From the IMG/VR virus record IMGVR_UViG_2693429668_000006: a DNA stretch of 64,000 nt; one strand, written 5' to 3'. The stretch is from a virus (taxonomy: Duplodnaviria; Heunggongvirae; Uroviricota; Caudoviricetes). The notes below the pieces were generated by a model that was given only the letters and a program-made list of their open reading frames with translations, was not told the origin of the DNA and ran no database searches. The position numbers were made by a program, and so were the translations under genes. Of this stretch, positions 2,447-63,253 are shown in pieces (position 1 is the first letter of the stretch; the number at the start of each line of letters is the position of its first letter).

Positions 2447-3031
2447 ATAAACTCCTGAATCAAGCGCCGCGCCGATTTTTTTTCCTCGCGCGTGCGCACA
2501 CGCGTGCGTGTTAATAATTATTAAAATAAACAAATTACTTCCCAGAACAGGTTTTTATAAACCTGAACTGAACGAACGAAGTGAGTGAAGTTCACCTCGA
2601 ACGAAGTGAGAGGTTGTCTTTTCAGGTAATACTCTCCCAGGGAGGTGAGTACAAAATTTCCTCACCAACCTGGTCGTTTCATAACCTGAAAAGTTATGAC
2701 CTAAGTCTACTGCCAGCTTAGGCTTGGGAAGTTATGGATGACAGCACCCCAGAACCGAGATCTTCCCACACTTTATGAAGGGGAGTACTGGATTCAACCT
2801 CTCGAAACACCCCAGACTCGACAATCATAAAGTGACCCTTGTCTCTGCTCACTTTGGTTCCCCCTTCCCCAACCCCTAAACGGTGCCGGTTCTACGCTGG
2901 TAGTGAGCTTTTTTAAACCTGACGCCAGTGACGCTTACCCCCACCCATCAGGTCGAGCCTCCAATCTACGACTGGAAACTATCAGATCTTAGCACTTACA
3001 ATTCACTTTATGAATAGTTTGTACTTATCTA

Positions 3032-3286
3032 TCATTTCGATTGATTATTTTTTCGACCATGTAGTTGAACATTCAAGGCAAACACCTCGTTGATCAACTC
3101 ACCTAAAAGCTGTTCAACAAGTTCGCGATGCTCCCCAAGATGCAAGCACTTAATTGCCCATTCGTACAAGTTGAAAGCCTGCTCACGATCTTTCATCATT
3201 TCACGAGCCTGGGCCAGAAAATCGCTCTCTACGAGCGCAACGACATTAGTCGGGTATGACATGTTGGTTTCCTTAAAGTGGTTCAT
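3032..3286 (-). CDS. hypothetical protein (84 aa)
   Basis: ORF track, same strand as neighbours. Confidence 0.4.
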   Translation of the reverse strand: MNHFKETNMSYPTNVVALVESDFLAQAREMMKDREQAFNLYEWAIKCLHLGEHRELVEQLLGELINEVFALNVQLHGRKNNQSK

Positions 3287-3368
3287 AAAATCGATTTTAA
3301 AGCGTCTGGGAAGGGGTTCTAGTGGATTCTGTAGTGGTGTTCAGGTCTGGGAGTCTCTGATATAAAAC

Positions 3369-3427
3369 AGCCTGCTTCCGTATATTAATAATTAATATGT
3401 AGTTATTTATATATACAGAAGCAGGCT
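3369..3427 (-). terminator. composite hairpin element: 10-bp GC stem (AGCCTGCTTC/GAAGCAGGCT) around 39-nt AT-rich loop, T-rich tail on minus strand
   Basis: perfect inverted repeat immediately downstream of the stop of gene 3449-4042; second copy at 53541-53599. Confidence 0.5.
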
Positions 3428-3448
3428 AATTACAGACGCCAGAACAAA

Positions 3449-4042
3449 CTAAGCAGCCTTCTTTGATGGTCTTTTTTTCCTGATCACATTCGCAGGATCA
3501 TACCCTCCCAGACTTTTCATGACGTCCAAAGGGATCTTGCTTATAGAGTGCCCAGCGTCCTGACAGAATCCTCGAAAAACAACGAGCATACTGCCACCTG
3601 GGTTGATGTTTACTTCTACCTGACCCAGATTTACGTCAGGCTCGACAAACGCTACGCGGCCACCAGACAGAATAATCGTCTCATTCGCACACTCTGTTGC
3701 ACGCTCATACCACTTTGTATCTAGGGATTGAGGAATTAGCATCACTGTTGTAACTCCACGAGCCTGCTCACGTATAGCCGCATCAATCCAGGGGGAGATT
3801 TTGGAGTAGGGTGGATTGAGGAAGGCAATTGTACCTGGCTGTCCCCATTCAGATTTCAAAGCATCACGCTCAACGCCTATGAAATTAGGCAGCTTTGCAT
3901 TGTCCTTGTTGCAGGCAACGTCAACATCAAATGTCACTCCAAGATAACGTTGAATGGCAGAAAACAGCCAGTCAGGTGTTCTCCAGAGGTCACGAAGAGA
4001 GTTGTCGCGCTTTCGCTGTTTGATTTTTTCGGCTGCAATCAT
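3449..4042 (-). CDS. DNA N6-adenine methyltransferase (phage Dam-like family)
   Basis: NPPY catalytic motif (FLNPPYS), WRTPDWLF N-terminal motif typical of phage N6A-MTases. Confidence 0.65.
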   Translation of the reverse strand: MIAAEKIKQRKRDNSLRDLWRTPDWLFSAIQRYLGVTFDVDVACNKDNAKLPNFIGVERDALKSEWGQPGTIAFLNPPYSKISPWIDAAIREQARGVTTVMLIPQSLDTKWYERATECANETIILSGGRVAFVEPDVNLGQVEVNINPGGSMLVVFRGFCQDAGHSISKIPLDVMKSLGGYDPANVIRKKRPSKKAA

Positions 4043-4073: not shown

Positions 4074-4225
4074 TTTTGCATTTGATTTTATGTCTGGCAA
4101 TCAAATAAAACGCGCCAGAAATGCAAACGAGAAGCTCTCTGGCGCGTTTTTGTGGTGCTGGGTATGTGATTGGCTTACCCAGTACTATAAAGCTCTCTAT
4201 GGGCTTTATTTTAAGTAGGGGAACG

Positions 4226-5035: not shown

Positions 5036-5193
5036 GTAAGTCTCCTTCTGTTTGGTTACATTTGCGTTTCGATGGCTGCATTTTGACTAAACCTATCAGG
5101 CGGAAAAGTATTAAATACAGGCAGAAAATGATTGAAAGGCGACTGTTCTTTAAAAAAAAGCCTACTTTAAACTTTTTAAAGTAGGCTTTTGTT

Positions 5194-5751
5194 TTACACA
5201 ATTTCAGAGGGTAATTTAAAAAATCCGTACTTATTACGTGCCTTAAAGAAGCATTGCATCATTAAGTTTGTGTCATATAAGGCACTATGTGCTTTGGCAT
5301 GATCGTATATAAAGCCAAGAGAGAAGGCCAACTCTTCAAGGCGGGGACGTTTACCGTCTTCTGTGGCCCACAATCCCGATAACATAGTATCTATAACAGG
5401 AACTTCTGGCAGTCTTACTCCATACCCTGAAAACTCGTGTCGAATAAATGGTATATCAAATGCTTCGCCGTTATGAGCAACCCACACACTACATGCCCCC
5501 ATATAAGCGCCAATTTCGCTGGCATGATTTGACAACAAAGGTTCAGCTGCGAGCTGTTCCAATGAAATGCCATGAACGGCTTGAGCTTTCGGATCTATGT
5601 TTCTGCGAGGGTTAAAACGCATCTCCAGACTATCAATATGTCTCTGTGTCTCCAGTTCATAGCGGGTAATTGCGATTTCAATAATTTTATGACCAGCAAG
5701 GAAATCCAGTCCCGTAGACTCGATATCGATGCCTGCAACAATCGTTGTCAT
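5194..5751 (-). CDS. DEDDh 3-prime-5-prime exonuclease (DnaQ-like)
   Basis: Exo I GIDIESTGL, Exo II HNGEAFDIPF, Exo III HSALYDT motifs. Confidence 0.7.
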   Translation of the reverse strand: MTTIVAGIDIESTGLDFLAGHKIIEIAITRYELETQRHIDSLEMRFNPRRNIDPKAQAVHGISLEQLAAEPLLSNHASEIGAYMGACSVWVAHNGEAFDIPFIRHEFSGYGVRLPEVPVIDTMLSGLWATEDGKRPRLEELAFSLGFIYDHAKAHSALYDTNLMMQCFFKARNKYGFFKLPSEIV

Positions 5752-8890: not shown

Positions 8891-8913
8891 AGATAAGTAA
8901 TTACTTATTCATC
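8891..8913 (-). promoter_or_regulatory. class-A palindromic motif AGATAAGTAATTACTTATTCATC
   Basis: immediately upstream of thyA RBS. Confidence 0.45.
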
Positions 8914-13605: not shown

Positions 13606-13625
13606 TAGATAAGTACTTACCTATC
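13606..13625 (-). promoter_or_regulatory. class-A palindromic motif TAGATAAGTACTTACCTATC
   Basis: upstream of nrdA. Confidence 0.45.
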
Positions 13626-18288: not shown

Positions 18289-18312
18289 ATAAGTAAGTAT
18301 ATACCTATTTAT
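18289..18312 (-). promoter_or_regulatory. class-A palindromic motif ATAAGTAAGTATATACCTATTTATC
   Basis: upstream of sbcD. Confidence 0.4.
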
Positions 18313-23745: not shown

Positions 23746-23768
23746 ATAATAAGTAAGTACTTATATAT
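23746..23768 (-). promoter_or_regulatory. class-A palindromic motif AATAATAAGTAAGTACTTATATAT
   Basis: upstream of 23716 start. Confidence 0.45.
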
Positions 23769-28532: not shown

Positions 28533-28560
28533 GATAGATCAGTACTTACTTATTATCTAT
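28533..28560 (-). promoter_or_regulatory. class-A palindromic motif GATAGATCAGTACTTACTTATTATCTAT
   Basis: upstream of SSB gene. Confidence 0.45.
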
Positions 28561-30102: not shown

Positions 30103-30431
30103 TGATGCCCGCCAATTGGCGGGCATCTGTTCTCTGTAAAGGTGTCTGGCATCGTCTGGTTCGTTAACGTTTACTAAACCAATGGTGACAAAAATTAGTT
30201 ATCTTTGAAAAATAAAGGTTGCATGAAAAGAAGGGGTATGCGTTAATAGCATCGTTGGTTTGCAAGACAGACCTTATGTAAGCAGTTTTAGTAAAGCAGT
30301 CTCAGTTCAGTGTTATCTTCTGATTTCCCTTCTTCGTGAGTCTCCTCCTTAAGTGCCTAAGTAAGTCCCAATCTATACAGATCAAATTCTCGCCGCACTA
30401 TGTGGCTCACAAAATTAAGAAGGTAATATCT

Positions 30432-30647
30432 ATGTCTAATAAAATGACTGGTTTAGTAAAATGGTTTAACTCTGATAAAGGCTTTGGCTTTATTTCTCCT
30501 GCTGATGGCAGTAAAGATGTTTTTGTACATTTTTCGGCAATTCAGAGTAATAATTTCCGCACTTTGGAAGAAGGCCAGCAGGTCGAATTCTCTATCGAGA
30601 ATGGGGCTAAAGGCCCAGCAGCAGCAAATGTCGTTGCTCTAAGCTGA
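30432..30647 (+). CDS. cold-shock protein (CspA family, 71 aa)
   Basis: RNP1/RNP2 motifs KGFGFI and VFVHF; GLVKWFN start; ~190-nt leader upstream. Confidence 0.85.
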
Positions 30648-30925
30648 TTCAACGCTGATGATCCTCATTTCTACAATAACGAAGACGGTGTAAGCCTGAG
30701 TGGATAGATTTGTAGGATTGTACAAGTTGAATAAATTAGCATGGTAAGGCCATGCTAATTAAATCGACACAACGGCCAGTTTATTCCATAAAAGTGAATT
30801 GCCCATTGTGGCGAAATGCGGGGTTGCCGCATGAATAGTCAAAGGCAGAAGCTAACTGCCGGCATGGCAAAACAAAGTGCGTAAGAGGAGTGACTTCCTC
30901 AACAAGCGCCATAATTCTTTATAAA

Positions 30926-30950: not shown

Positions 30951-33900
30951 TTACTTATTTATTGTCTCCGCGATATCAGCCAGAATGGCCTCCAGTCGCT
31001 CTCCTTCTTCCGGTCGGAAGTACAGGATATTCGGGTTAAATCCGTAGAAGACGGTTGCATCAAGCTCTGGGAAGTACTCCTTACGACCAATCAGATCTGA
31101 TGGTTTACTCTTATTGTTAAATAGTGCGGTTGAACGACTACCACACGTCAAAATGTAGGTTGGTCGTACAAGATTAATTTCTTCCCGCATAAAGTCTGTG
31201 AACTGGCCTATCTCGTCTTTGGTATAGTCTTTCTCTTTGTCCTTAACCTTCTTACAAACACCCGTGACATAAAGATCGCCCATGCGCAGATCTCCAACTG
31301 TCAGTAGTTTTGCCTTAAAGTCGTCGTATCCGTTCTCCATGAAGTAGCCGGTACGAGCGTCATTGCCGTTCGCATTGTCCAGAATGATCATGATTTTGGG
31401 TTTAATACCAATAGTCGGGCGTATCAACTCCTCACCCAAGCCCATTTCAGCCGCCATACGTGTCATGAGTACGTTGATTTCGGCAGAACGCTTAGGATTC
31501 ATTTCGAACGGACGTGATGCTTTAACAGCGTCAATGATGAGATTGCCCATCAGCTCAGCCTGGTCGCGCAGTCGTTCAGGATCAGTTGCTGGCAGACTGC
31601 CTGGCTCAATTGACGCAAAAGCCCCTACTTTATGAAGCGACTCGCGTACACGACTGTTACATGCACGCTTCTCGACCGCTTCATCGAATTGTGCCACTGA
31701 CTCGAATTTGCCACCAACTTTCTCACGCGCACGCATAATTGCCTGACAACCATTTTCAGAACAGCCTTTCACAGCAGAGAATGGCGCATACAGTGCCTGA
31801 CTGCCGTCTTCGAGTGTGCGGATCTCAATTCGGTTAGATGACACATTAACGTCTGGTGGCAATACGCGAATGCCATAGGTCAGCGCATCCTTCACCAGCC
31901 CCTGATGCTTATCCTCGCCCAGAATGGTGAGCGCAGCTGCGAAGAACTCAGCAGGGTAGTGCGTCTTTAGCCACATAGACTGATAACTGATTAAAGAATA
32001 AGAAACGGAGTGTGATTTATTGAACTGATAGGCTCCGTTTTTCTCAAATGCGGTCCAGATCTCCTTCGCTTTCATCTCTGATAGCCCTGGATGTGACGCT
32101 GTAACGCGTACTGCGTTTATAGGTAGTTTTGCGCCGTGCTCAAGTGCCTCTTCGACAGTTTTCAGAGTTCCGTCTTCGCATTTAAAATGTTCCGCACGGT
32201 GAATGCGCTGTGTAGTGCCATCTTCCAGCTCAACGTCTATCCAGCCAGCTTGAGCCTGAACGATGAACTTCTCGCCCATGCTCTTCATTTTTTCCATGTT
32301 CTTCTTACCGATTGCGGAACGCACAGCGTCAGCTTCAGCCATTGTGAAGCCGGCAAGCAATCGAGTCGCGTTCATCGTCTGTTCCTGATAGAGAATCACG
32401 CCATTTGTTTCCGCGGTAAGTTCATCAAGAACGGGGTGTAATGATTCCGGCGTCATAAAGCCTTTGGCGACAGAAACATAGTCATCCAACATGCCTGATT
32501 GAATTGGCCCCGGCCGGAAGAGCGCAGTTGTAGCGACGACCGTTTTAAAGCTCATTGGCTCAATTCCACCACCTAAATCTTTAAGCAGCTTGCGCATTGG
32601 GCCTGATTCAAGCTGGAAAACACCTTGAGTGTACCCAGCAGCAAAACCATCCAGCACCTTGCGATCTTCAAGAGAAATGGCATCAAGATTGATATCTTCA
32701 CCTGTGTTCTCTTTTATGTAGCGTTTTGCACTATCGAGCAAATCGAGAGTTGCCAGGCCAAGCACGTCCAGCTTAATTAGGCCCATAGCCTCGCAGTAAC
32801 GCTTGTCAAATGCGATACAACGCGCGTCACCACGGCGCTCAACCGGTGTACGTTCTGTCAGAGGAACACCTGCTACGATCATCCCTGCCGCATGTCTACC
32901 AAAGCCACGCATAAGGCTTTGTAACTTGCAGGCTGCATTGAATGCATCAGGATATTTTGTTGCGTATTTGTCGAGACTTGCCAGTTGTTCGCGCAGTTCT
33001 TCCAATGGAAGGCTATCATCCTCAGCGTTCTTCAGTTCTTTTGATACCGCCATATCTGCGGACTCCACACCATAAATACGAGCGGTGTCACGTAGTGCAG
33101 AGGCTGCGCCCAGGTAGGTGAAGTTCGGAATGCCTGCAACGTAATCTTCGCCGTAGCGTTCATTCAGATACTCGATCACCTCATGGCGACGTGCCTGGCT
33201 GAAGTCCAAATCCGCATCTGGCAAGTCGAGACGCTCAGGGTTGATGAAACGTTCAAACAGAAGACCGTGACGGATAGGGTCGACGTTGGTTATGCCTATG
33301 CACCATGCCACCAAAGAGCCAGCGGAGGAACCACGACCAGGCCCGACAGGAATGCCAGTTTCACGGCTGTGATTCATCAGATCGCGTACCATCAGGAAGT
33401 AACCACAAAATCCCAGGCGAGTAAGCGTGTCCATTTCGTACTTAAGTCGCTCAACATAAACCCTGTTCTCAGAAGCCGGTGGTGTGTATCCAAACTCTTT
33501 TGTGGTAAGACGTTTACGCAGCCCTGCAACAGCCAGTTTCATCAGCGTTGCAGGTTCGTCGTCTGCCATCTTGGGCAGTGCTGGTGGCAATTCATGCCAG
33601 CGCCATGTACAGGCTTCGATAATGGAGTCCTGCGTTGTTGAGGCCATTGCAGCTGTTACCGGCACATCCATGCGAACGGAGAAGGCTTTAAGCGCCTCAA
33701 GGAGATGGCGGCGACCATTGACGGCGTTATCTCGCTGGTGGGGTATACGCAGACGATGCGGCTGGTCGATTTTTATGTTGTTCGTAACCATGTGCGCAAT
33801 GTCTTTAATGTCTGCATCGTCGATCGATTCGTAATAAGCGGGATAGAACGCTACTGGCTCTATTTTCAGTGCGCTGGCTACTTTCATCGCTCGGACGTTA

Positions 33901-35942: not shown

Positions 35943-35964
35943 CTATGGTAAGTAGTTACTTATC
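35943..35964 (-). promoter_or_regulatory. class-A palindromic motif CTATGGTAAGTAGTTACTTATC
   Basis: upstream of AAA+ gene. Confidence 0.45.
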
Positions 35965-38400: not shown

Positions 38401-38651
38401 TCAATCAATCCATTCTAACTTATACTATGGTAAGGAATACTACTAAAATCTATATCAATACTGAATACATTCATATCATATGCAAGTTGATTTTCTTACC
38501 TGTTTTGGGCTAATTTTTCTCCGTGCAATGGCCTTTAACCGGTCTTTTAAGTGCCTATCGAAAAAAATGATAATAGCTTTACAACCCTAACCTTTGATGT
38601 AATATCGGTAAGCACTTACCAGAGAGAATTGAACGCGCAAAGGTTGTAACC

Positions 38652-39038
38652 ATGTCTGATAACAAGATTGAATTTATAGAAAGTCGCTACGCTGCTTTTA
38701 TCGCAGGGTTGATTGAATCCTCACCTATGAGCCAGGCCCAGATAGCCAAAACAATTGGGTATAAAAACGCCAACAACCTTTCTTTAATTAAAAGCGGCAA
38801 AATTCCTTTGCCTATCGATAAGGTTCGTCCGCTGGCGCTGGCACTGGGCATTGAGCCAAGTCGTCTTATGATGATGGTGCTGGAAGAACGCCAACCCGAA
38901 CTCGCAGCATTTTTATACAAAGAAGGCACTGCTCCTCTTAACGAGGACGAAAAACAGGTTCTTGCTGCATATAACGAGCGATTCGGTAAAGAGAAAGGCG
39001 CATCACAAAAGGTTGTTGAGGCCATAAAGTCTCTATGA
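38652..39038 (+). CDS. HTH DNA-binding regulator (XRE-like)
   Basis: helix-turn-helix segment SQAQIAKTIGYKNANNLSLIKSGK. Confidence 0.5.
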   Translation: MSDNKIEFIESRYAAFIAGLIESSPMSQAQIAKTIGYKNANNLSLIKSGKIPLPIDKVRPLALALGIEPSRLMMMVLEERQPELAAFLYKEGTAPLNEDEKQVLAAYNERFGKEKGASQKVVEAIKSL

Positions 39039-42060: not shown

Positions 42061-42311
42061 GTTGTGCAGATTCGAAGCCTCTTTAAATTTTGCGCTGAAA
42101 ATTGTTATTTTACGGTAAGTAACGCTGTTTTCAGCGCATAAATGTCAGTGAATAATTTGATGCTTGCTGTAACGATGGTACGCTACGTAAAATCCGATAT
42201 TTATGAGACTGATTGCAGGTAAGGACTTACATAGCGCACAAAAATTGCTGATACCAGATGCAATATATGTTTAATGTCAAATTTTAGATAGGGGCGTATA
42301 CGCCCCTGTCA

Positions 42312-43005: not shown

Positions 43006-43159
43006 GAATTTTGCGCTGAAAAAAGTGTTGCTAGGATGTTAGCAAGCTATGGTTAAGAACGTCTGCCGTAATTGTCTATCACAGCGTTGAGCGGTCTGGT
43101 TTATGTTAGCGGAGTCTTAATCTGGTTGATTAAAAGGCCAAACCGCTCAACGCTGTGTC

Positions 43160-43246: not shown

Positions 43247-43540
43247 AATTGTGTTGTGTGCTCCGTTTCGTGGAGCTAACGGCGGGTGATCAGACCGCAC
43301 CAGGTTGGACGTATTTCAGCGTTATGCTGTTGCAAGAGAGCCAAATTGTGATGGCCGGTGCTGATCTCCGGCATTGCCTACGTTAGCGGCCTTCAGGCAG
43401 TTCATCCGCTTGCTTCTACGTCGCACATCAGCCTGTGCATTCACCACAATGTTGAGAACACTGGTTGTCACGCTGCAACGCAACATTATATTCATAAATT
43501 GGGATATGAACCCGTTACGCCAATGTTCTCAATATTATGT

Positions 43541-43616
43541 TGGTGCCGGTTAACGGACTTGAACCGCTGGCCATTTGCTTACAAAGCGACTGCTCTACCA
43601 ACTGAGCTAAACCGGC
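43541..43616 (-). tRNA. tRNA-Thr (anticodon UGU), two mismatches in anticodon stem
   Basis: 76 nt; acceptor/D/T arms canonical; loop TTTGTAA; possibly pseudo-tRNA. Confidence 0.6.
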
Positions 43617-43620
43617 AATT

Positions 43621-43707
43621 TGGTGGGGAGTGATGGAGTCGAACCACCCGAGTCGCAATGACAGTAGATTTACAGTCTACACCGCTACCTCTACGGACTA
43701 ACTCCCC
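43621..43707 (-). tRNA. tRNA-Tyr (anticodon GUA)
   Basis: 87 nt; anticodon arm GTAGA-CTGTAAA-TCTAC; long variable arm. Confidence 0.8.
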
Positions 43708-43712
43708 TAAAT

Positions 43713-43787
43713 TGGCGATGGTGGGTGGATTCGAACCACCGATCAGTTGGTTAACAGCCAACTGCTCTACCGCTGAGCTACACCATC
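43713..43787 (-). tRNA. tRNA-Asn (anticodon GUU)
   Basis: 75 nt; anticodon arm GTTGG-CTGTTAA-CCAAC; T-arm GGTGG-TTCGAAT-CCACC. Confidence 0.85.
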
Positions 43788-44545
43788 AATTCAGCACTGC
43801 CAGTATTTATTACTCAGCAGTGCCAATCGCGGCGGTGTTAGTTTTTGCCAATAAACGCACCGCTACTTGCACTTTTCGTTAGTGCCAGACGTTTTCGACT
43901 TCGCTCAATAGAAGGCAAAATCTTTAAGTAGATGATGTTTCTGAGGACAGCACCTACTTTGTAATTTACATAATGCGGTGTATGGAATCATTTGTTGTGA
44001 AAACAGGCACCAATGGCAACAGTGGTTAAACCTACACAACAATCCTGTCTTCACAACGTTGAGGCCACTACCCCGATTGAATGTTTGCCCAACATGTTAC
44101 ATATCAACGTTCGCCAGTATCTCTGTGAATAGAACCTTAGAATTGATAAAAATGTAATGGCCTCAACGTTGTGTGCTGGCTAACCATACCAGCCGGGCTA
44201 CGTCGCCGCTTTTTAACCCAGTATAAACGACATAATTGAACAAAATGACGTAACAGGATGGGCGGTCAGTGGCTAAGAATCCGGGAGTGATATGGAGTTG
44301 GAAATATACCGACCGCCCATTCTGTTACTTCATCGGAGAGGGCATGGGTGGTGCCGTATCATGCCCTCTCCTGCGTTCTGCAATCACACTCGCTCAGTGT
44401 GTCCCATTTCGGTAACGAGGCTGGAAACTGACCTCGCTGGTGTTTGGCTTATTAGGCTACTGCCAGATAGACTTCTTCGTTTGCACTTGTATTTAAGTTC
44501 AAACAGTCGCGTCTCAACGAAAACAAAGCCATCTTATACATAAAA

Positions 44546-44567
44546 GATAAGTAAGTAAATACTTATC
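44546..44567 (-). promoter_or_regulatory. class-A palindromic motif GATAAGTAAGTAAATACTTATC
   Basis: upstream (minus-strand sense) of the structured noncoding region and tRNA cluster. Confidence 0.4.
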
Positions 44568-52685: not shown

Positions 52686-53426
52686 TTAATTAGATAGGGG
52701 ATCAATAAACCGCCGTGCTTCTTCCAGTTCTTCTGGAAAGTGGGCGGAAATAAGGCGCTCTGGAACGATTTCCATTAGCCAGATAGCGGAGAAAATTGCG
52801 CGTATGCGCTTACTGCGAGGGATGGTGCGCAAACGCTCCAGAATCCACTCAAAATAGCTTTCCTGAATCGGGTTGAACTGCATGTCTCCCATATGCTTAA
52901 AGCTAACCAGAGAGTCATCCAGACGGGTTGTTGCGCGTCTGGCTAATTTCTCTTCAAATATCTCAATCAGTTCTGGCTGCCACAAATGCTGTGGGCGAGG
53001 CAGCTTGTCCCACAGACGTCGTGCAGCTGCGGAAAGAACAGTGGAGATAAAGTAGTCGTATGAGCAGCAATAGCGATCCGCAAACTGGCGTGCTTTCCAT
53101 AGCGACGTTTTATTAGCAGTCGACAACTCCTGATAAGGCAAGCGTTTTAACCCGGTGGTGAACGGAGCTGTTTCAAAGTGTTCACGACCGTGCGTCAGCA
53201 TGATATTTGAGTACTGACGTTTGTATGCCTCCGTAAACAGACAGGTGGCCATGAGAGGATGCATATCGCGGTAATCAAACCACTTCGTCTCAAACAGTTC
53301 AGCCTCGTCTTTGCAGCGCGACAAACCAATGTTTTCAGCAACCCACTTGTCCATAACAGCGGTATTCCACTCTGTCATGAAGTCGTACTGGTCGTTGTCG
53401 ATGGTATCGAAAAAGATTTGGCTCAT
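52686..53426 (-). CDS. hypothetical protein (246 aa)
   Basis: ATG at 53426 with AGGTGA RBS (track GTG start at 53435 rejected). Confidence 0.5.
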   Translation of the reverse strand: MSQIFFDTIDNDQYDFMTEWNTAVMDKWVAENIGLSRCKDEAELFETKWFDYRDMHPLMATCLFTEAYKRQYSNIMLTHGREHFETAPFTTGLKRLPYQELSTANKTSLWKARQFADRYCCSYDYFISTVLSAAARRLWDKLPRPQHLWQPELIEIFEEKLARRATTRLDDSLVSFKHMGDMQFNPIQESYFEWILERLRTIPRSKRIRAIFSAIWLMEIVPERLISAHFPEELEEARRFIDPLSN

Positions 53427-53437
53427 GTGGCTCACCT

Positions 53438-53459
53438 GGTAGGTAGTTACTTACTTATC
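53438..53459 (-). promoter_or_regulatory. class-A palindromic motif GGTAGGTAGTTACTTACTTATC
   Basis: immediately upstream of 53426 start. Confidence 0.45.
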
Positions 53460-53540
53460 ACAATGAGCGGATGATAGCGACTGGTGGCAGTTTTTGGAAG
53501 TGGAAACGGAAGGGACTTGTTCTGGTGGGTGTCTTTAAAA

Positions 53541-53599
53541 GACCTGCTTCTGTATATACAAATAATAAGTAACTTATTAAATACATACGGAAGCAGGTC
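53541..53599 (-). terminator. composite hairpin element: 10-bp stem GACCTGCTTC/GAAGCAGGTC around 39-nt AT-rich loop
   Basis: second copy of the element at 3369-3427; directly downstream of KAP-like NTPase stop. Confidence 0.5.
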
Positions 53600-53607
53600 A
53601 TAATCTA

Positions 53608-55314
53608 TTAATGATTGAGTATTTTATTAACACGCAGCTTATTAAGTGTTGATTTTGAAGCAACTTCCTCCAAAGCTTCTATTGCTTTATCAGTGATGCT
53701 CTTCTGTTCGTCTGTCGGGTGTTGCATACCCTTGAACTTGAGCATAGTCTCTTCTACTAAATTCAAAGCATCCTGATCACAGGATAATATCCAGTTTACG
53801 TAATCATCTTTAGAAAAACTGTTAAGAATATTCACATCACTATGGTTAAATCTTCCACCAGCTATTTTTTTTATAATTTTATCTAAGTTATAGTCATCTG
53901 GATTTCTATCTTTCAATTTTTTTTCAATTCTGAAACCTAATTCTTCATTTCCGAAGATCTCTACTCGCAAAGAATTAAATGTAGCATACGCATTGTCTTT
54001 ATTAACAAAAGCATCTGCATATGCCTCTATAATATTATTACAATCTCTATCCAATTTGATTAGGACATTTATTAAACCTACGAACTGTCCAATTGGTATA
54101 CGCAACAGACTATCGTTAATTACGCGCTCAATTTGAAAAATAAACTCTGATTCATTATCTTTAAAAGAGTTTCTAAAAACATCCCAAATTTTATAAACCT
54201 CACATAAAACCCTATTATCTCTATATTGTTCATTTTTTTCTTTTATTATATTTAGAATATTGCTTTCAGAAGACACATAACCGTTCTTAAGGTAAAAATC
54301 TATATCATCATCGAAAGCACTTTCTGCTCGTTCATAAATAATATCAAGGCTATTAACAAATGAATATACAGAGTTAACTTCTTCCTTTTCATCTTTATCA
54401 TCTAACATATAGTCGAATGCATGTATATTTTTGATTGACTCCTTAAATGAAGCATAATCAACGCTAGGAACACCAAAATAGTAAACCACTGAAAATAAGA
54501 CCAATCTATTAATAAAACTTTCTCTAACCTTATCCTCTGCTAACTTTAGCACATCTCTAAATATAACTAGAGATGATTTTATTTTATTTAATATTCTAAT
54601 GTTTTTGATGTTTAAATCATTTGCTAGGTTTTTTAACAAAAGAAAATCAGGGTCAGTCTCATAAAAAACTTTTCTTAAGTTTTTCTCAGGCGTGGGATCG
54701 TATTTTATTTCCACATCAATTATTTTTTCTCTATACTCTAAAAACTGTTGTTGTGCAGTTTCTTCATGTAAGTTATCTTCATTTAATATTAGAACAACCT
54801 TGCAATTTTTTCTTCTTGCCAACTCATCAATTACCCCCATAATCTCTTTAATTTCTAGCGCACTACCTTTTCGTTCAATATCATCAATGCAAACCAAATA
54901 ATTATTAACAAATTTATACTCAAGAGATGACAGCAGATTATCAGTTTTGAACCCAAAAAAATCGTTCTTTCCAAAATGTATTAAAAATTTTGACAAGGAG
55001 TTGTATTTCAACCATCCCCAAAACCCATTTCTATAACGAATCATAGTTCGATCCGTTTCAGATAAAATCAGTTCTTTATATTTCTTTTCATTAATTGGTG
55101 TGGCACAATGATAAAGAGCTTTTTTAATGTCTCCAATAGAATTTATTCCAAACAAAGAAACATATGAATATGCATTAAAATCTAATTTTTTAGAATGTTT
55201 AGTATAAAAGCTATTCCAATAATGCGTTTTACCTACTCCCCAATTTCCTTTTATGACAGCAACCCGATGATCTGAGTCCAAAAAATTTTTTAAAAATACT
55301 TCTATCGATTCCAT
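53608..55314 (-). CDS. KAP-family-like P-loop NTPase (568 aa), AT-rich accessory gene
   Basis: Walker A GNWGVGKT (GxWGxGK[ST]), Walker B LVCIDDIERK (hhhhDD[LI][DE]R); strongly AT-rich. Confidence 0.55.
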   Translation of the reverse strand: MESIEVFLKNFLDSDHRVAVIKGNWGVGKTHYWNSFYTKHSKKLDFNAYSYVSLFGINSIGDIKKALYHCATPINEKKYKELILSETDRTMIRYRNGFWGWLKYNSLSKFLIHFGKNDFFGFKTDNLLSSLEYKFVNNYLVCIDDIERKGSALEIKEIMGVIDELARRKNCKVVLILNEDNLHEETAQQQFLEYREKIIDVEIKYDPTPEKNLRKVFYETDPDFLLLKNLANDLNIKNIRILNKIKSSLVIFRDVLKLAEDKVRESFINRLVLFSVVYYFGVPSVDYASFKESIKNIHAFDYMLDDKDEKEEVNSVYSFVNSLDIIYERAESAFDDDIDFYLKNGYVSSESNILNIIKEKNEQYRDNRVLCEVYKIWDVFRNSFKDNESEFIFQIERVINDSLLRIPIGQFVGLINVLIKLDRDCNNIIEAYADAFVNKDNAYATFNSLRVEIFGNEELGFRIEKKLKDRNPDDYNLDKIIKKIAGGRFNHSDVNILNSFSKDDYVNWILSCDQDALNLVEETMLKFKGMQHPTDEQKSITDKAIEALEEVASKSTLNKLRVNKILNH

Positions 55315-55365: not shown

Positions 55366-55725
55366 TCACCCTTTCTTCATCAACTCGCGTTTAATTTCAT
55401 CGGTACGCATCGTGACATCGGCAGCTGTGATCGCCTCGTTAAGTTTCACGATGTCCTCGATTTCCTGCGGTGTCTTCTCCGCAAGATGGAAAATAGCAGC
55501 ACGAATCACGTCAGAACGAGTGAACTTCTCGAAGCGAGGGATGAACTTCATCATCTCCAGCAGTTCGAAGTATTCGTCCTCCAGTGACATTGTGCGGCTT
55601 TTAATTTTCTCTTTGCCACGAGTCGGGCGTCCCTGTGGTCTGACTGGTTGGCGCAAAGGAGTTGTGTTCTTAGCCGGTGCATCAGGCTCTTTGCGCTTTG
55701 CTAGGTCACCCATTTTCATGGACAT
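55366..55725 (-). CDS. small partition partner protein (ParG/ParB-like candidate, 119 aa)
   Basis: translationally coupled downstream of parA; basic N-terminus. Confidence 0.4.
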   Translation of the reverse strand: MSMKMGDLAKRKEPDAPAKNTTPLRQPVRPQGRPTRGKEKIKSRTMSLEDEYFELLEMMKFIPRFEKFTRSDVIRAAIFHLAEKTPQEIEDIVKLNEAITAADVTMRTDEIKRELMKKG

Positions 55726-56393
55726 TATTCTTCTTCCTCCAGACTCAACAGATAATCTACAAATTCTTCAAACTCGGCTTCCGCCTTTTTGTCGCGCTCG
55801 CTACCGGTCATTTCAAAGATAGAACGACCAGACTCTTCCGCATCATCATAGACGTTGCGGTTATATAGATTGACTGGCGCAGACTCGATGCCAAACGTCT
55901 CAACAATCTCTTTAGCCGCCAGAATGCGAGACACTTGTGATGGCAAAGCCGGGCACTGGTTCATGACCGCGCGGACCTTCACTTTATCGTTTACATTACG
56001 AACATTGTCGATAATAGGATCGATGTCACGCAGAGATTTCAAATCACGACGCTTAGGACGAAGCGGGATAATGATAACGTCGGCCATCAGCATCGCTTGT
56101 CGCTGAATTTCGGAGTCAAAGCCACCAGCATCTACCACTACAAACTCAGCTCTACCCTGAAGCGATTTTAGGTGCTTAATGATGTCATCCTGAACGTATG
56201 CAAAAGGAATCAGCTCAAGGTCTTCGTTCTGTCGACGGTCTTCACACCAGCTTGTTGTCGTGCGCTGAATATCTATATCAGTGATATAAACCTTCTTCTT
56301 CTTTTTGACTTTCAGGCAAACGGCAATTTGCTGGGCAACGGTGGATTTGCCAGGCCCGCCCTTTGTGCCGCCAACCACAAAGATCTTGGTCAT
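55725..56393 (-). CDS. parA: ParA-family partition ATPase
   Basis: deviant Walker A VVGGTKGGPGKST; 222 aa small-ParA size. Confidence 0.8.
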   Translation of the reverse strand: MTKIFVVGGTKGGPGKSTVAQQIAVCLKVKKKKKVYITDIDIQRTTTSWCEDRRQNEDLELIPFAYVQDDIIKHLKSLQGRAEFVVVDAGGFDSEIQRQAMLMADVIIIPLRPKRRDLKSLRDIDPIIDNVRNVNDKVKVRAVMNQCPALPSQVSRILAAKEIVETFGIESAPVNLYNRNVYDDAEESGRSIFEMTGSERDKKAEAEFEEFVDYLLSLEEEE

Positions 56394-63232: not shown

Positions 63233-63253
63233 ATTAAGTAAATACTTACCTAT
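63233..63253 (-). promoter_or_regulatory. class-A palindromic motif ATTAAGTAAATACTTACCTAT
   Basis: upstream of tail-fiber gene, followed by 5-prime-UTR hairpin and AAGGAG RBS. Confidence 0.45.

Follow-up and report, generated by a model that had tools for sequence, protein, structure and literature searches.

Long AU-rich hairpins repeated at operon boundaries of an SSU5-like phage-plasmid as probable intrinsic transcription terminators

Two long palindromes and related intergenic elements

Textbook intrinsic (factor-independent) transcription terminators carry a U-run of 7-9 residues, and their short stem and small loop are typical but not mechanistically required features. The terminator hairpin of lambda tI/sib is lengthened into an RNase III substrate when transcription reads through it. 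The intergenic sites that RNase III cuts in T7 are hairpins in which an internal loop separates a lower from an upper stem; several of them occur per genome with shared sequence. N15 has inverted repeats scattered over its genome as centromere sites, and RK2 has KorB operators; both kinds are duplex operators of 13-16 bp. Repetitive extragenic palindromic (REP) and enterobacterial repetitive intergenic consensus (ERIC) elements are imperfect palindromes in transcribed intergenic DNA, which fold in mRNA and can end or stabilise transcripts; they are found in tens to hundreds of copies at variable chromosomal sites. Finally, integron attC sites contain the core sites R''/R' (RYYYAAC/GTTRRRY), and their arrays adjoin the integron integrase. 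Here we analyse two palindromes, at 3369-3427 (copy 1) and 53541-53599 (copy 2), in a stretch of 64,000 nucleotides from the IMG/VR virus record IMGVR_UViG_2693429668_000006 (called the window below). Both copies are probably intrinsic terminators of unusual build, with a long hairpin.

The window belongs to an SSU5/pHCM2-like phage-plasmid with approximately 98% identity to Escherichia phage Cyrano. The flanks of both copies are 97-99% identical to Cyrano (pLF82) and CMS-2020a, and 77-82% identical to Salmonella phage SSU5. All genes around the two elements lie on the minus strand, which is therefore the coding strand in the following. A literature search for the element found no description of it.

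Both elements were found where a preliminary description of the window had placed them, and with the same arms: AGCCTGCTTC (3369-3378) pairs with GAAGCAGGCT (3418-3427) in copy 1, and GACCTGCTTC (53541-53550) with GAAGCAGGTC (53590-53599) in copy 2. That description, however, saw a perfect 10-bp stem around a 39-nt loop. The complementarity of the arms actually continues to 17-18 nt, interrupted by a single mismatch or wobble, and pairing goes on in the AT-rich interior, so that each element is a near-perfect palindrome of 55-59 nt forming a hairpin of about 24 bp. In copy 1 (minus strand, 59 nt, coding-strand sequence AGCCTGCTTCTGTATATATAAATAACTACATATTAATTATTAATATACGGAAGCAGGCT), 18 consecutive pairs, one of them U.G, lie below an internal loop and a short AU upper stem. 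Copy 2 (minus strand, 59 nt, GACCTGCTTCCGTATGTATTTAATAAGTTACTTATTATTTGTATATACAGAAGCAGGTC on the coding strand) contains one C.A mismatch. The predicted fold runs from a long lower stem through a small internal loop and a short AU upper stem to an apical loop of 3-5 nt. RNA structure prediction, which the preliminary description had proposed, gave stable coding-strand hairpins at both copies, with minimum free energies of -30.1 (copy 1) and -28.3 kcal/mol (copy 2) and z-scores of -6.0 and -6.6; none of 200 shuffled sequences folded as well. Because the interior is paired, the earlier objection that a 39-nt loop would be atypical of a terminator falls away. The copies had also been called near-identical, which is true of the arms; the whole 141-nt regions (element and about 40 nt of each flank) align at 75% identity.

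The base of the stem, CCUGCUUC/GAAGCAGG, comprises 9-10 bp and is GC-rich, with five G-C among eight pairs. A T-rich tract after the stem had been noted on the minus strand, and it is indeed present at both window copies on this coding strand only. Directly 3' of copy 1, the T-run GTTTTATA occupies 3361-3368 (minus strand, read 3368-3361). In copy 2, the stem ends in GGTC and is followed by TTTTAAAG (53537-53540, minus strand); the sequence closing this copy is TCTTTTAAAG (TCTTTT, 53542-53537), the TC of which represents the final two stem bases. The resulting U-runs, GUUUUAUA and (GGUC)UUUUAAAG, contain 4 U each. The stop codon of the preceding gene lies 21 nt (Dam methylase, stop 3451-3449) or 8 nt (KAP NTPase, stop 53610-53608) before the element, and the next start codon follows 106-114 nt after it.

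Like the canonical intrinsic terminators of Enterobacteria, these elements place a GC-rich stem base and then a coding-strand U-run at the 3' end of a unit, and a transcript drop is seen at the orthologous copy 2 (see below). Unlike them, they fold 55 nt into about 24 bp, interrupted by an internal loop and AU-rich towards the top, and not into a stem of 5-14 bp with a loop of 3-8 nt. This difference is the reason why a scan with the terminator consensus made no call at either element. They also differ in their 4-U run, in the presence of three copies of one sequence, in their outer inverted boxes and in one member that lacks the U-run.

The pattern CCTGCTTC-N30-50-GAAGCAGG occurs twice in the window, compared to 0.00 occurrences expected from 100 shuffles, and the four CCTGCTTC octamers of the window all lie within the two elements. 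No further copies were found in the window: half-sites with up to two mismatches, paired 20-80 nt apart, yielded nothing else that was AT-rich or palindromic, and a search of the window with an nhmmer family profile returned only the two elements. Rfam 15 gave no match at gathering score over the elements, and at E <= 10 only noise resembling miRNA precursors. On inspection of the sequence, which does not amount to a test, a LexA box, a loxP-like core, a protelomerase telRL-like site and an integration host factor site do not fit in spacing or half-sites.

The hairpins are accompanied by outer boxes. Most copies have GTCTGGGAG about 12-14 nt upstream and its complement CTCCCAGAC(C) 13-20 nt downstream, often followed by more CCAGA boxes. 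At copy 1, the 5' outer box TTCTGGCGTCTG (3434-3445, minus strand) is the inverted partner of the 3' box CTCCCAGACC (3344-3353, minus strand), which is predicted to extend the hairpin, and an additional CCCAGAC lies at 3304-3310. Copy 2 has the 3' box CCACCAGAAC (53518-53527, minus strand), and its 5' partner is missing in the window because a cargo gene abuts the arm and takes the place of the box. The heptamer CCCAGAC is found four times in the 64-kb window, always inside 2811-3513, i.e., in the 700 bp around copy 1. With boxes and partly complementary spacers included, sites 1 and 3 (defined below) are predicted to form extended hairpins of 115-140 nt with -43 to -57 kcal/mol and a duplex of 45-50 bp. 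The looser motif YCCAGAM is about twofold enriched across the window (48 matches versus 25 expected).

Fixed sites and pairing in related phage-plasmids

Relatives were sampled from IMG/VR through the flanking proteins, so that the element itself does not bias the sample. Cyrano and SSU5 carry both elements at the homologous junctions, and a profile search of the complete Cyrano genome revealed exactly three copies: after the Dam methylase gene (site 1), between the parA/cargo and helicase operons (site 2), and upstream of terS (site 3, outside the window). The site 1 element occurs in all sampled relatives with a methylase at least 73% identical, the site 2 element in 80/80 loci (flanking protein at least 87% identical), and the site 3 element in 74/75 loci, the contig of the remaining locus stopping just short of the site. 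Each of the 156 related loci contains one copy. The preliminary description had suggested searching related genomes at such junctions; the element is kept there in these relatives.

A pattern scan of one genome per species returned seven stretches, in Kluyvera, Buttiauxella, Yersinia pestis and one contig of a Bacillota metagenome-assembled genome. Among the first three taxa, the contigs judged by size and host look SSU5/pHCM2/pMT1-like. In E. coli, the copy-2 region was detected in 216 of 5426 complete genomes, on plasmids only and at 0 chromosomal places, and the RefSeq records of this survey have no annotated feature under the element. The fixed syntenic sites and the plasmid-only occurrence indicate that the element is not a mobile repeat. 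As an imperfect palindrome in transcribed intergenic DNA it is similar to REP/ERIC elements, but it is restricted to three fixed syntenic sites in one phage-plasmid family. A repeated intergenic palindrome with terminal inverted boxes that is sometimes flipped might be expected of a selfish or neutral repeat (a palindrome like REP or a miniature inverted-repeat transposable element, or a duplication relic) that has no function for the phage. We consider this very improbable, since the copies always sit at the same three junctions (one per sampled locus, three in Cyrano), the contigs judged in the species scan are of this phage-plasmid type, none of the 216 E. coli genomes has a chromosomal place, and the palindrome is maintained by compensatory changes.

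Over the three sites, the coding-strand consensus is CCTGCTTC-Y-GTATATATAAATAAYWAAGTNACTTATTAAATATATAC-R-GAAGCAGG. Among close relatives, variation in the arms mostly preserves pairing, with CCTGTTTC, CCTGCTTT and GAAGTAGG yielding G.U pairs. Compensatory double changes (CCTGCTTT/AAAGCAGG, CCTGCGTC/GACGCAGG and CCTGTTTC/GAAACAGG) affect 3 of 9 outer pairs, and all nine were recovered by RNAalifold from a set of 59 unique sequences of sites 1 and 2. Coding-strand counts in this set are 46 G.U/U.G cells versus 14 C.A/A.C cells, a bias that is only suggestive because alignment cells are not independent events. Uncompensated mismatches were seen at site 1 of SSU5, in three further loci (L235, L219 and L262) and, as CCTGCATC, at site 3 of Cyrano.

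The two strands also differ in the sequence after the stem. We scored a T-run when at least five T occurred in 8 nt starting 0-2 nt past the stem, counting unique variants per site. Site 1 has such a run on the coding strand in 19/28 variants and on the opposite strand in 0/28; at site 2 the values are 35/40 and 13/40. At the terS copy (site 3) of the main lineage they are 0/30 and 1/30. The window copy 2 is inverted relative to most relatives: its plus strand matches the common copy-2 sequence (L126) at 53/55 positions and its coding strand does not, and the locus identical to the window copy (L130) gave 51 flipped versus 33 forward. The C.A mismatch on the coding strand of copy 2 is due to this flip.

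In distant relatives, with methylases 61-64% identical, the nested architecture is kept and the sequences differ. One of them (L284) has the arms GCCTTGCTCCCATA...TATGGGAGCAAGGC inside an outer stem CCGCAGTGT/ACACTGCGG, and the arms AAGCCGTGTTCCCATA...TATCGGAGCACGGCTT of another (L285) lie in a similar nested layout; a scan for the exact arms of the L284 lineage found the site-1 copy only. At sites 1 and 2 of a divergent Klebsiella lineage (L277-283 and plasmid NZ_CP155713), only a remnant of the right arm is left, with a canonical hairpin and T-run behind it. The three sites of this lineage share one concerted change of the arm, to TATAsAGrGCCAGGC, and the right arm persists even where the left one is lost. 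The terS-site hairpin of NZ_CP155713 contains three G.U pairs and folds on the coding strand only (-17.5 versus -9.9 kcal/mol); CUCUCUUUUU follows. An Aeromonas relative has a canonical GC-rich hairpin at site 2. In the Acinetobacter baumannii plasmid NZ_CP149832 (L379, approximately 2310-2430), repB and the helicase operon are separated by a nested palindrome, an AT-rich inner hairpin bordered by duplicated ACTTGGG boxes to its left and CACCCAAGT boxes to its right (CTTGGG/CCCAAG). Its layout resembles that of iterons next to an AT-rich region.

The third copy lies 115-135 nt upstream of terS and spans record ends (Cyrano OV696614, 108340-108379 plus 1-20; ends of SSU5 NC_018843). The SSU5 record is linearised inside this copy, 134 nt upstream of terS and one base left of the start of the Cyrano record. 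The sequence AAACAAGTTG occurs twice about 60 nt beyond it, along with a small canonical terminator that immediately precedes the ribosome-binding site of terS. The SSU5 record ends could be physical ends or, equally, an assembly break in a 55-bp repeat, the latter because short-read contigs (L127 and L140) also end inside copy 2. Accordingly, the terS copy could be a packaging-related site or only the place of an assembly break. Among the phage records, a start in the terS copy is confined to SSU5 and to Cyrano, which is co-linear with it; the others begin elsewhere. TerL belongs to the Terminase_6 type, which neither points to defined cohesive ends nor settles the termini, and a literature search on SSU5 termini found nothing relevant.

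These ends are one reason to ask whether the palindromes act at the DNA level: as sites for a phage protein (centromere-like or of a global regulator), for origin function or unwinding, for packaging, or as fragile or recombination sites at which an extruded hairpin or cruciform would provoke breaks, exchange of cargo and recombination-dependent replication, with termination at sites 1 and 2 as a by-product. Three copies per genome with one consensus and repeated boxes on either side would suit such a function, as would an arm sequence that is the same at all sites, changes in concert in the Klebsiella lineage and is kept there when the left arm is lost. The iteron-like Acinetobacter palindrome beside repB and the helicase operon points in the same direction, and the phage encodes SbcCD-like, RuvC-like and UvsW/UvsY/gp32-like proteins and two ParB-N-domain proteins. 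With N15 and RK2, the system shares a few copies of one palindrome dispersed at operon boundaries, as well as an encoded ParA and the ParB-N-domain proteins; it differs in that the palindrome is 55 bp long, AT-rich and hairpin-forming, and has strand-asymmetric signals. The 5' arm of copy 2 is where the homology to Cyrano and SSU5 ends. Together with the inversion of this copy, this break gives weak support to the recombination hot spot that the preliminary description had proposed.

Nevertheless, we regard a DNA-level function as doubtful. A strand-asymmetric U-run, an excess of G.U pairs and a Klebsiella hairpin that folds on one strand are not predicted for a site in duplex DNA, and the compensatory double changes in close relatives fit pairing and not the recognition of half-sites. 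Canonical terminators replace the element in other lineages. SSU5 is the single independent record that starts in the element, and the breaks of short-read contigs there are expected of a 55-bp repeat; the TerL type is likewise no pointer to defined cohesive ends. GC skew keeps its sign at both copies, which speaks against a replication origin, although the test is weak for phage genomes. Overall, the strand asymmetries and compensatory changes favour an RNA role over a DNA-level one.

Transcript levels and the case for termination

Published RNA-seq data of the LF82/Cyrano lysogen cover the orthologous copy 2, which lies between the cargo gene CYRAN_30 just 5' and CYRAN_31 just 3' of it. Expression values are 50 for parA, 89 for CYRAN_29, 55 for CYRAN_30 and 6.2 for CYRAN_31, with a background of 9.8, and the log2 columns give 8.6-10.4 for CYRAN_30 and 2.6-4.2 for CYRAN_31 (PMC9928086, S1 Table). 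These columns are labelled log2p5fpkm, and we took their floor as log2(5) = 2.32. In the Cyrano lysogen, parA, CYRAN_29 and CYRAN_30 are thus co-expressed, and transcript levels drop 60-200-fold across the 193-nt gap at copy 2 (calculated from the same table). The element (Cyrano 31157-31219) is the sole strong hairpin noticed in this gap. We infer that transcription ends at the U-run, so that the drop is not a product of processing, and that the same holds for copy 1. The data are uninformative on sites 1 and 3, because both sides are near background there. CYRAN_80, downstream of copy 1, is slightly above CYRAN_79 in several conditions (PMC9928086, S1 Table), which is consistent with a promoter after the copy-1 hairpin.

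The terminator half of the composite terminator/promoter proposed by the preliminary description is supported by the hairpin with its coding-strand T-run at a gene 3' end, by the drop in the Cyrano RNA-seq data and by the canonical terminators of distant relatives. Hairpin, U-run, end-of-unit position and transcript drop, the testable defining features of a terminator, are all found here, and only the habit of a short stem with a small loop is missing. We therefore class the elements as terminator hairpins that are long, AU-rich, conserved in sequence, present in several copies and accompanied by outer inverted boxes. In the mechanism that we propose, the GC-rich base of 9-10 bp, lengthened by AU pairs to a hairpin of about 24 bp, and the short coding-strand U-run would bring about intrinsic termination. 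Copy 2 would close an operon expressed in the lysogen, consisting of parA, the gene for its 119-aa partner and a cargo (defence) gene, and would stop read-through into the repressed helicase/primase operon, whose own promoter and operator would lie about 40-100 nt beyond the hairpin. After the Dam methylase gene, copy 1 would act likewise, and the three paralogous hairpins would mark operon boundaries in SSU5-like phage-plasmids.

Several observations do not sit well with termination as the full explanation. The palindrome of the terS copy is as well conserved as the others, although none of its 30 variants has a T-run, and termination can therefore not be the whole reason why the family is retained. 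T-runs are also absent from some site-1 lineages (L248, L272-276, L284 and L285). The arm CCTGCTTCYGTATA is the same at the three paralogous sites and across lineages with diverged flanks, which a constraint on structure only does not predict, and the outer boxes GTCTGGGAG/CTCCCAGAC with their spacers extend the structure to about 115 nt, which a terminator does not need. Further points of this kind are the C.A mismatch on the coding strand of the flipped window copy 2 and the shortness of the U-runs (4 U). Finally, the RNA-seq values are per gene, so that they do not separate termination from cleavage followed by decay, and they are silent on copy 1. Termination thus leaves unexplained the shared arm sequence at three sites, the outer TCTGGG/CCCAGA boxes and the terS copy without a T-run, and these points give some weight to two less probable readings, the DNA-level alternative and a second one at the RNA level.

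In this second alternative, which is based on predicted structures and which we consider unlikely, the hairpins would be recognised RNA elements instead of, or besides, terminators. They could be sites of RNase III processing and retroregulation: read-through would form a duplex of 45-50 bp from the inner hairpin and the outer TCUGGG/CCCAGA stem, and its cleavage would uncouple the stability of the neighbouring segments. Alternatively, a phage RNA-binding regulator, a putative antiterminator or terminator enhancer, could bind the hairpins, which would account for one sequence at three of them. The long, nearly continuous duplexes predicted with the outer stem at sites 1 and 3 (115-140 nt, -43 to -57 kcal/mol) fit such a role, as do the order of lower stem, internal loop and upper stem, the intergenic position a few nt past a stop codon, the identical arm sequence at three sites and a terS copy that retains its hairpin without a U-run. 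So does the nested layout of the two most divergent site-1 relatives described above (L284 and L285), which is the same despite a different outer stem sequence. RNase III acts on about two helical turns (at least 20 bp) of mostly uninterrupted double-stranded RNA, and the 18-bp lower stem together with the upper stem provides this in the prediction; the only sub-threshold Rfam hits, miRNA precursors, have the shape of RNase III-class substrates.

The element resembles lambda tI/sib and the T7 sites as an intergenic multi-copy hairpin with a comparable, predicted combination of inner hairpin and outer stem. It differs from them in that it has no sequence similarity to them and belongs to no Rfam family, and in that the outer stem is absent at the window copy 2. 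The missing 5' outer box at this copy and in other cargo-bearing variants also implies that the extended duplex is dispensable there. Moreover, termination is the simpler explanation for the 60-200-fold lower RNA level downstream of copy 2, no candidate RNA-binding partner is linked to the element, and the toleration of flipped copies argues against a strictly oriented RNA recognition site.

A more speculative and rather improbable idea is that the three nested palindromes form a dedicated cis-element system of SSU5-like phage-plasmids, which is read by a phage factor or by hairpin-specific nucleases. As a switchable RNA, the element would terminate transcription in the lysogen, and lytic read-through would be cut or overridden, amounting to sib-like retroregulation at three boundaries. 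As a DNA site, it would suffer breaks of the SbcCD/RuvC type that would seed T4-style recombination-dependent replication, set the packaging start near terS and make the defence slot at copy 2 a hot spot.

Phage-plasmids of the SSU5/pHCM2/pMT1 type are common in clinical Enterobacteria and carry defence and resistance cargo, and their regulatory DNA is essentially unannotated. If intrinsic termination is the correct reading, copy 2 shows how swappable defence cargo can be expressed from the partition operon in lysogeny without leaking into the lytic replication genes. The remaining novelty lies in the shared hairpin sequence, the outer boxes and the terS copy, which could reveal a family-specific control or recombination element.

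Cargo slot, promoter and genome surroundings

The gene upstream of copy 1 (3449-4042, minus strand) encodes a phage Dam-type N6-adenine methyltransferase (PF05869, E = 2.5e-38), and the gene downstream (3032-3262, minus strand) a 76-aa protein without a Pfam family, whose ATG lies 106 nt past copy 1. Upstream of copy 2, a KAP-family P-loop NTPase gene (53608-55314, minus strand; PF07693) matches PDC-S49 (E = 2e-21). It follows parA (ParA/MipZ) and the gene for the 119-aa partner (55366-56393, minus strand), and this operon continues through the cargo gene and stops at copy 2. Downstream, the gene for a 246-aa protein (52686-53426, minus strand) leads the DnaB-helicase/primase operon.

The preliminary description considered the element as shared by two accessory genes. 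This holds for the KAP NTPase, which is variable cargo, but the Dam methylase is a core protein kept in all relatives, down to 61% identity. Between the 119-aa gene and the element, relatives (L125-L204) have either an empty interval or cargo of several kinds: PD-T7-5, small membrane proteins, a KAP NTPase (match to PDC-S49) or a DUF2971 protein (match to PDC-S31). In the empty slot (L125), the 119-aa gene ends 30 nt before the element, which stays with the backbone. The cargo gene of the window has a GC content of 35% compared to about 45% in the rest of the window. The interval before copy 2 is thus a single-gene defence slot that is expressed from the par operon and closed by the hairpin.

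An imperfect palindrome with nested inverted repeats at the 3' end of variable single-gene cargo is reminiscent of an integron attC site. Unlike attC, the element forms no cassette arrays and stays in the empty slot, and the other two copies follow core genes. We rejected an attC site, as the arms CCTGCTTC/GAAGCAGG lack a visible GTTRRRY core, there is one element per locus (156 loci), and the element stays when the slot is empty.

A promoter inside the loop was not supported: a sigma-70 consensus scan found none on the coding strand and only a weak 9/12 antisense match at copy 1. The composite terminator/promoter of the preliminary description is still a fair account of the intergenic regions, where a terminator is followed by a promoter, but the promoter is outside the hairpin. 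The helicase/primase operon appears to have its own promoter at 53499-53471 (minus strand), about 40 nt downstream of copy 2. This candidate, proposed from conservation only, consists of TTCCAA, a spacer of 17 nt and TATCAT, and the second hexamer is TATCAT or TATGAT in all relatives. Between it and the ribosome-binding site, separate from the hairpin, is a palindromic motif of class A, GATAAGTAAGTAACTACC (53442-53459, minus strand), which is a probable repressor operator.

The loop of copy 2 had been said to carry a class-A-like sequence. Its apex, TAAGTAACTTA (53566-53576), is indeed similar, but the half-sites are one base wider apart than in TAAGTACTTA. The palindromic motif TAAGTACTTA is over-represented in the window, with 10 hits versus 1.65 expected; its fuller form is roughly ATAAGTAAGTACTTACTTAT or GGTAAGTRCTTACC. 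Class-A motif sites lie at 8894-8907, 13610-13619, 18289-18312, 23754-23763, 28539-28548, 35949-35958, 38609-38618, 42220-42229, 44556-44565, 53442-53459 and 63239-63248. They are mostly intergenic and upstream of minus-strand genes, several of them between -35-like and -10-like hexamers, and one is directly upstream of a helix-turn-helix repressor gene (38652-39038). These motifs are probably the operator set of the prophage repressor. A similar motif, AAGTAATTACTTAT, is kept in the Aeromonas relative (L378).

Other palindromes are present in the window. Those at 4107-4150 and 5152-5194, with arms AAAACGCGCCAGA/TCTGGCGCGTTTT and AAAAAAAAGCCTACTTTAAA/TTTAAAGTAGGCTTTTGTTT, look like ordinary bidirectional terminators, so the genome also uses conventional terminators. 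A cluster of three tRNA genes (43544-43787, minus strand) is flanked by three more large inverted repeats (43080-43157, 43442-43542 and 44245-44333), whose arms of 20-26 nt are 83-95% complementary and enclose spacers of 37-55 nt.

The cspA thermoregulator of Rfam is matched over its full length at 30254-30672 (plus strand), with 186 bits (gathering score 78). A cold-shock-type gene with its regulatory 5' untranslated region is therefore part of the phage-plasmid. CYRAN_114 (Cyrano 100780-101301, minus strand, outside the window), annotated as 'transcriptional regulator', matches the FljA family (PF03614, E = 1e-80). In Salmonella, FljA is the RNA-binding repressor of phase-1 flagellin translation. 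In the Aeromonas (L378, 3730-4053) and Acinetobacter (L379, 3211-3750) relatives, an hfq gene lies between the gene for the 246-aa homologue and the DnaB helicase gene.

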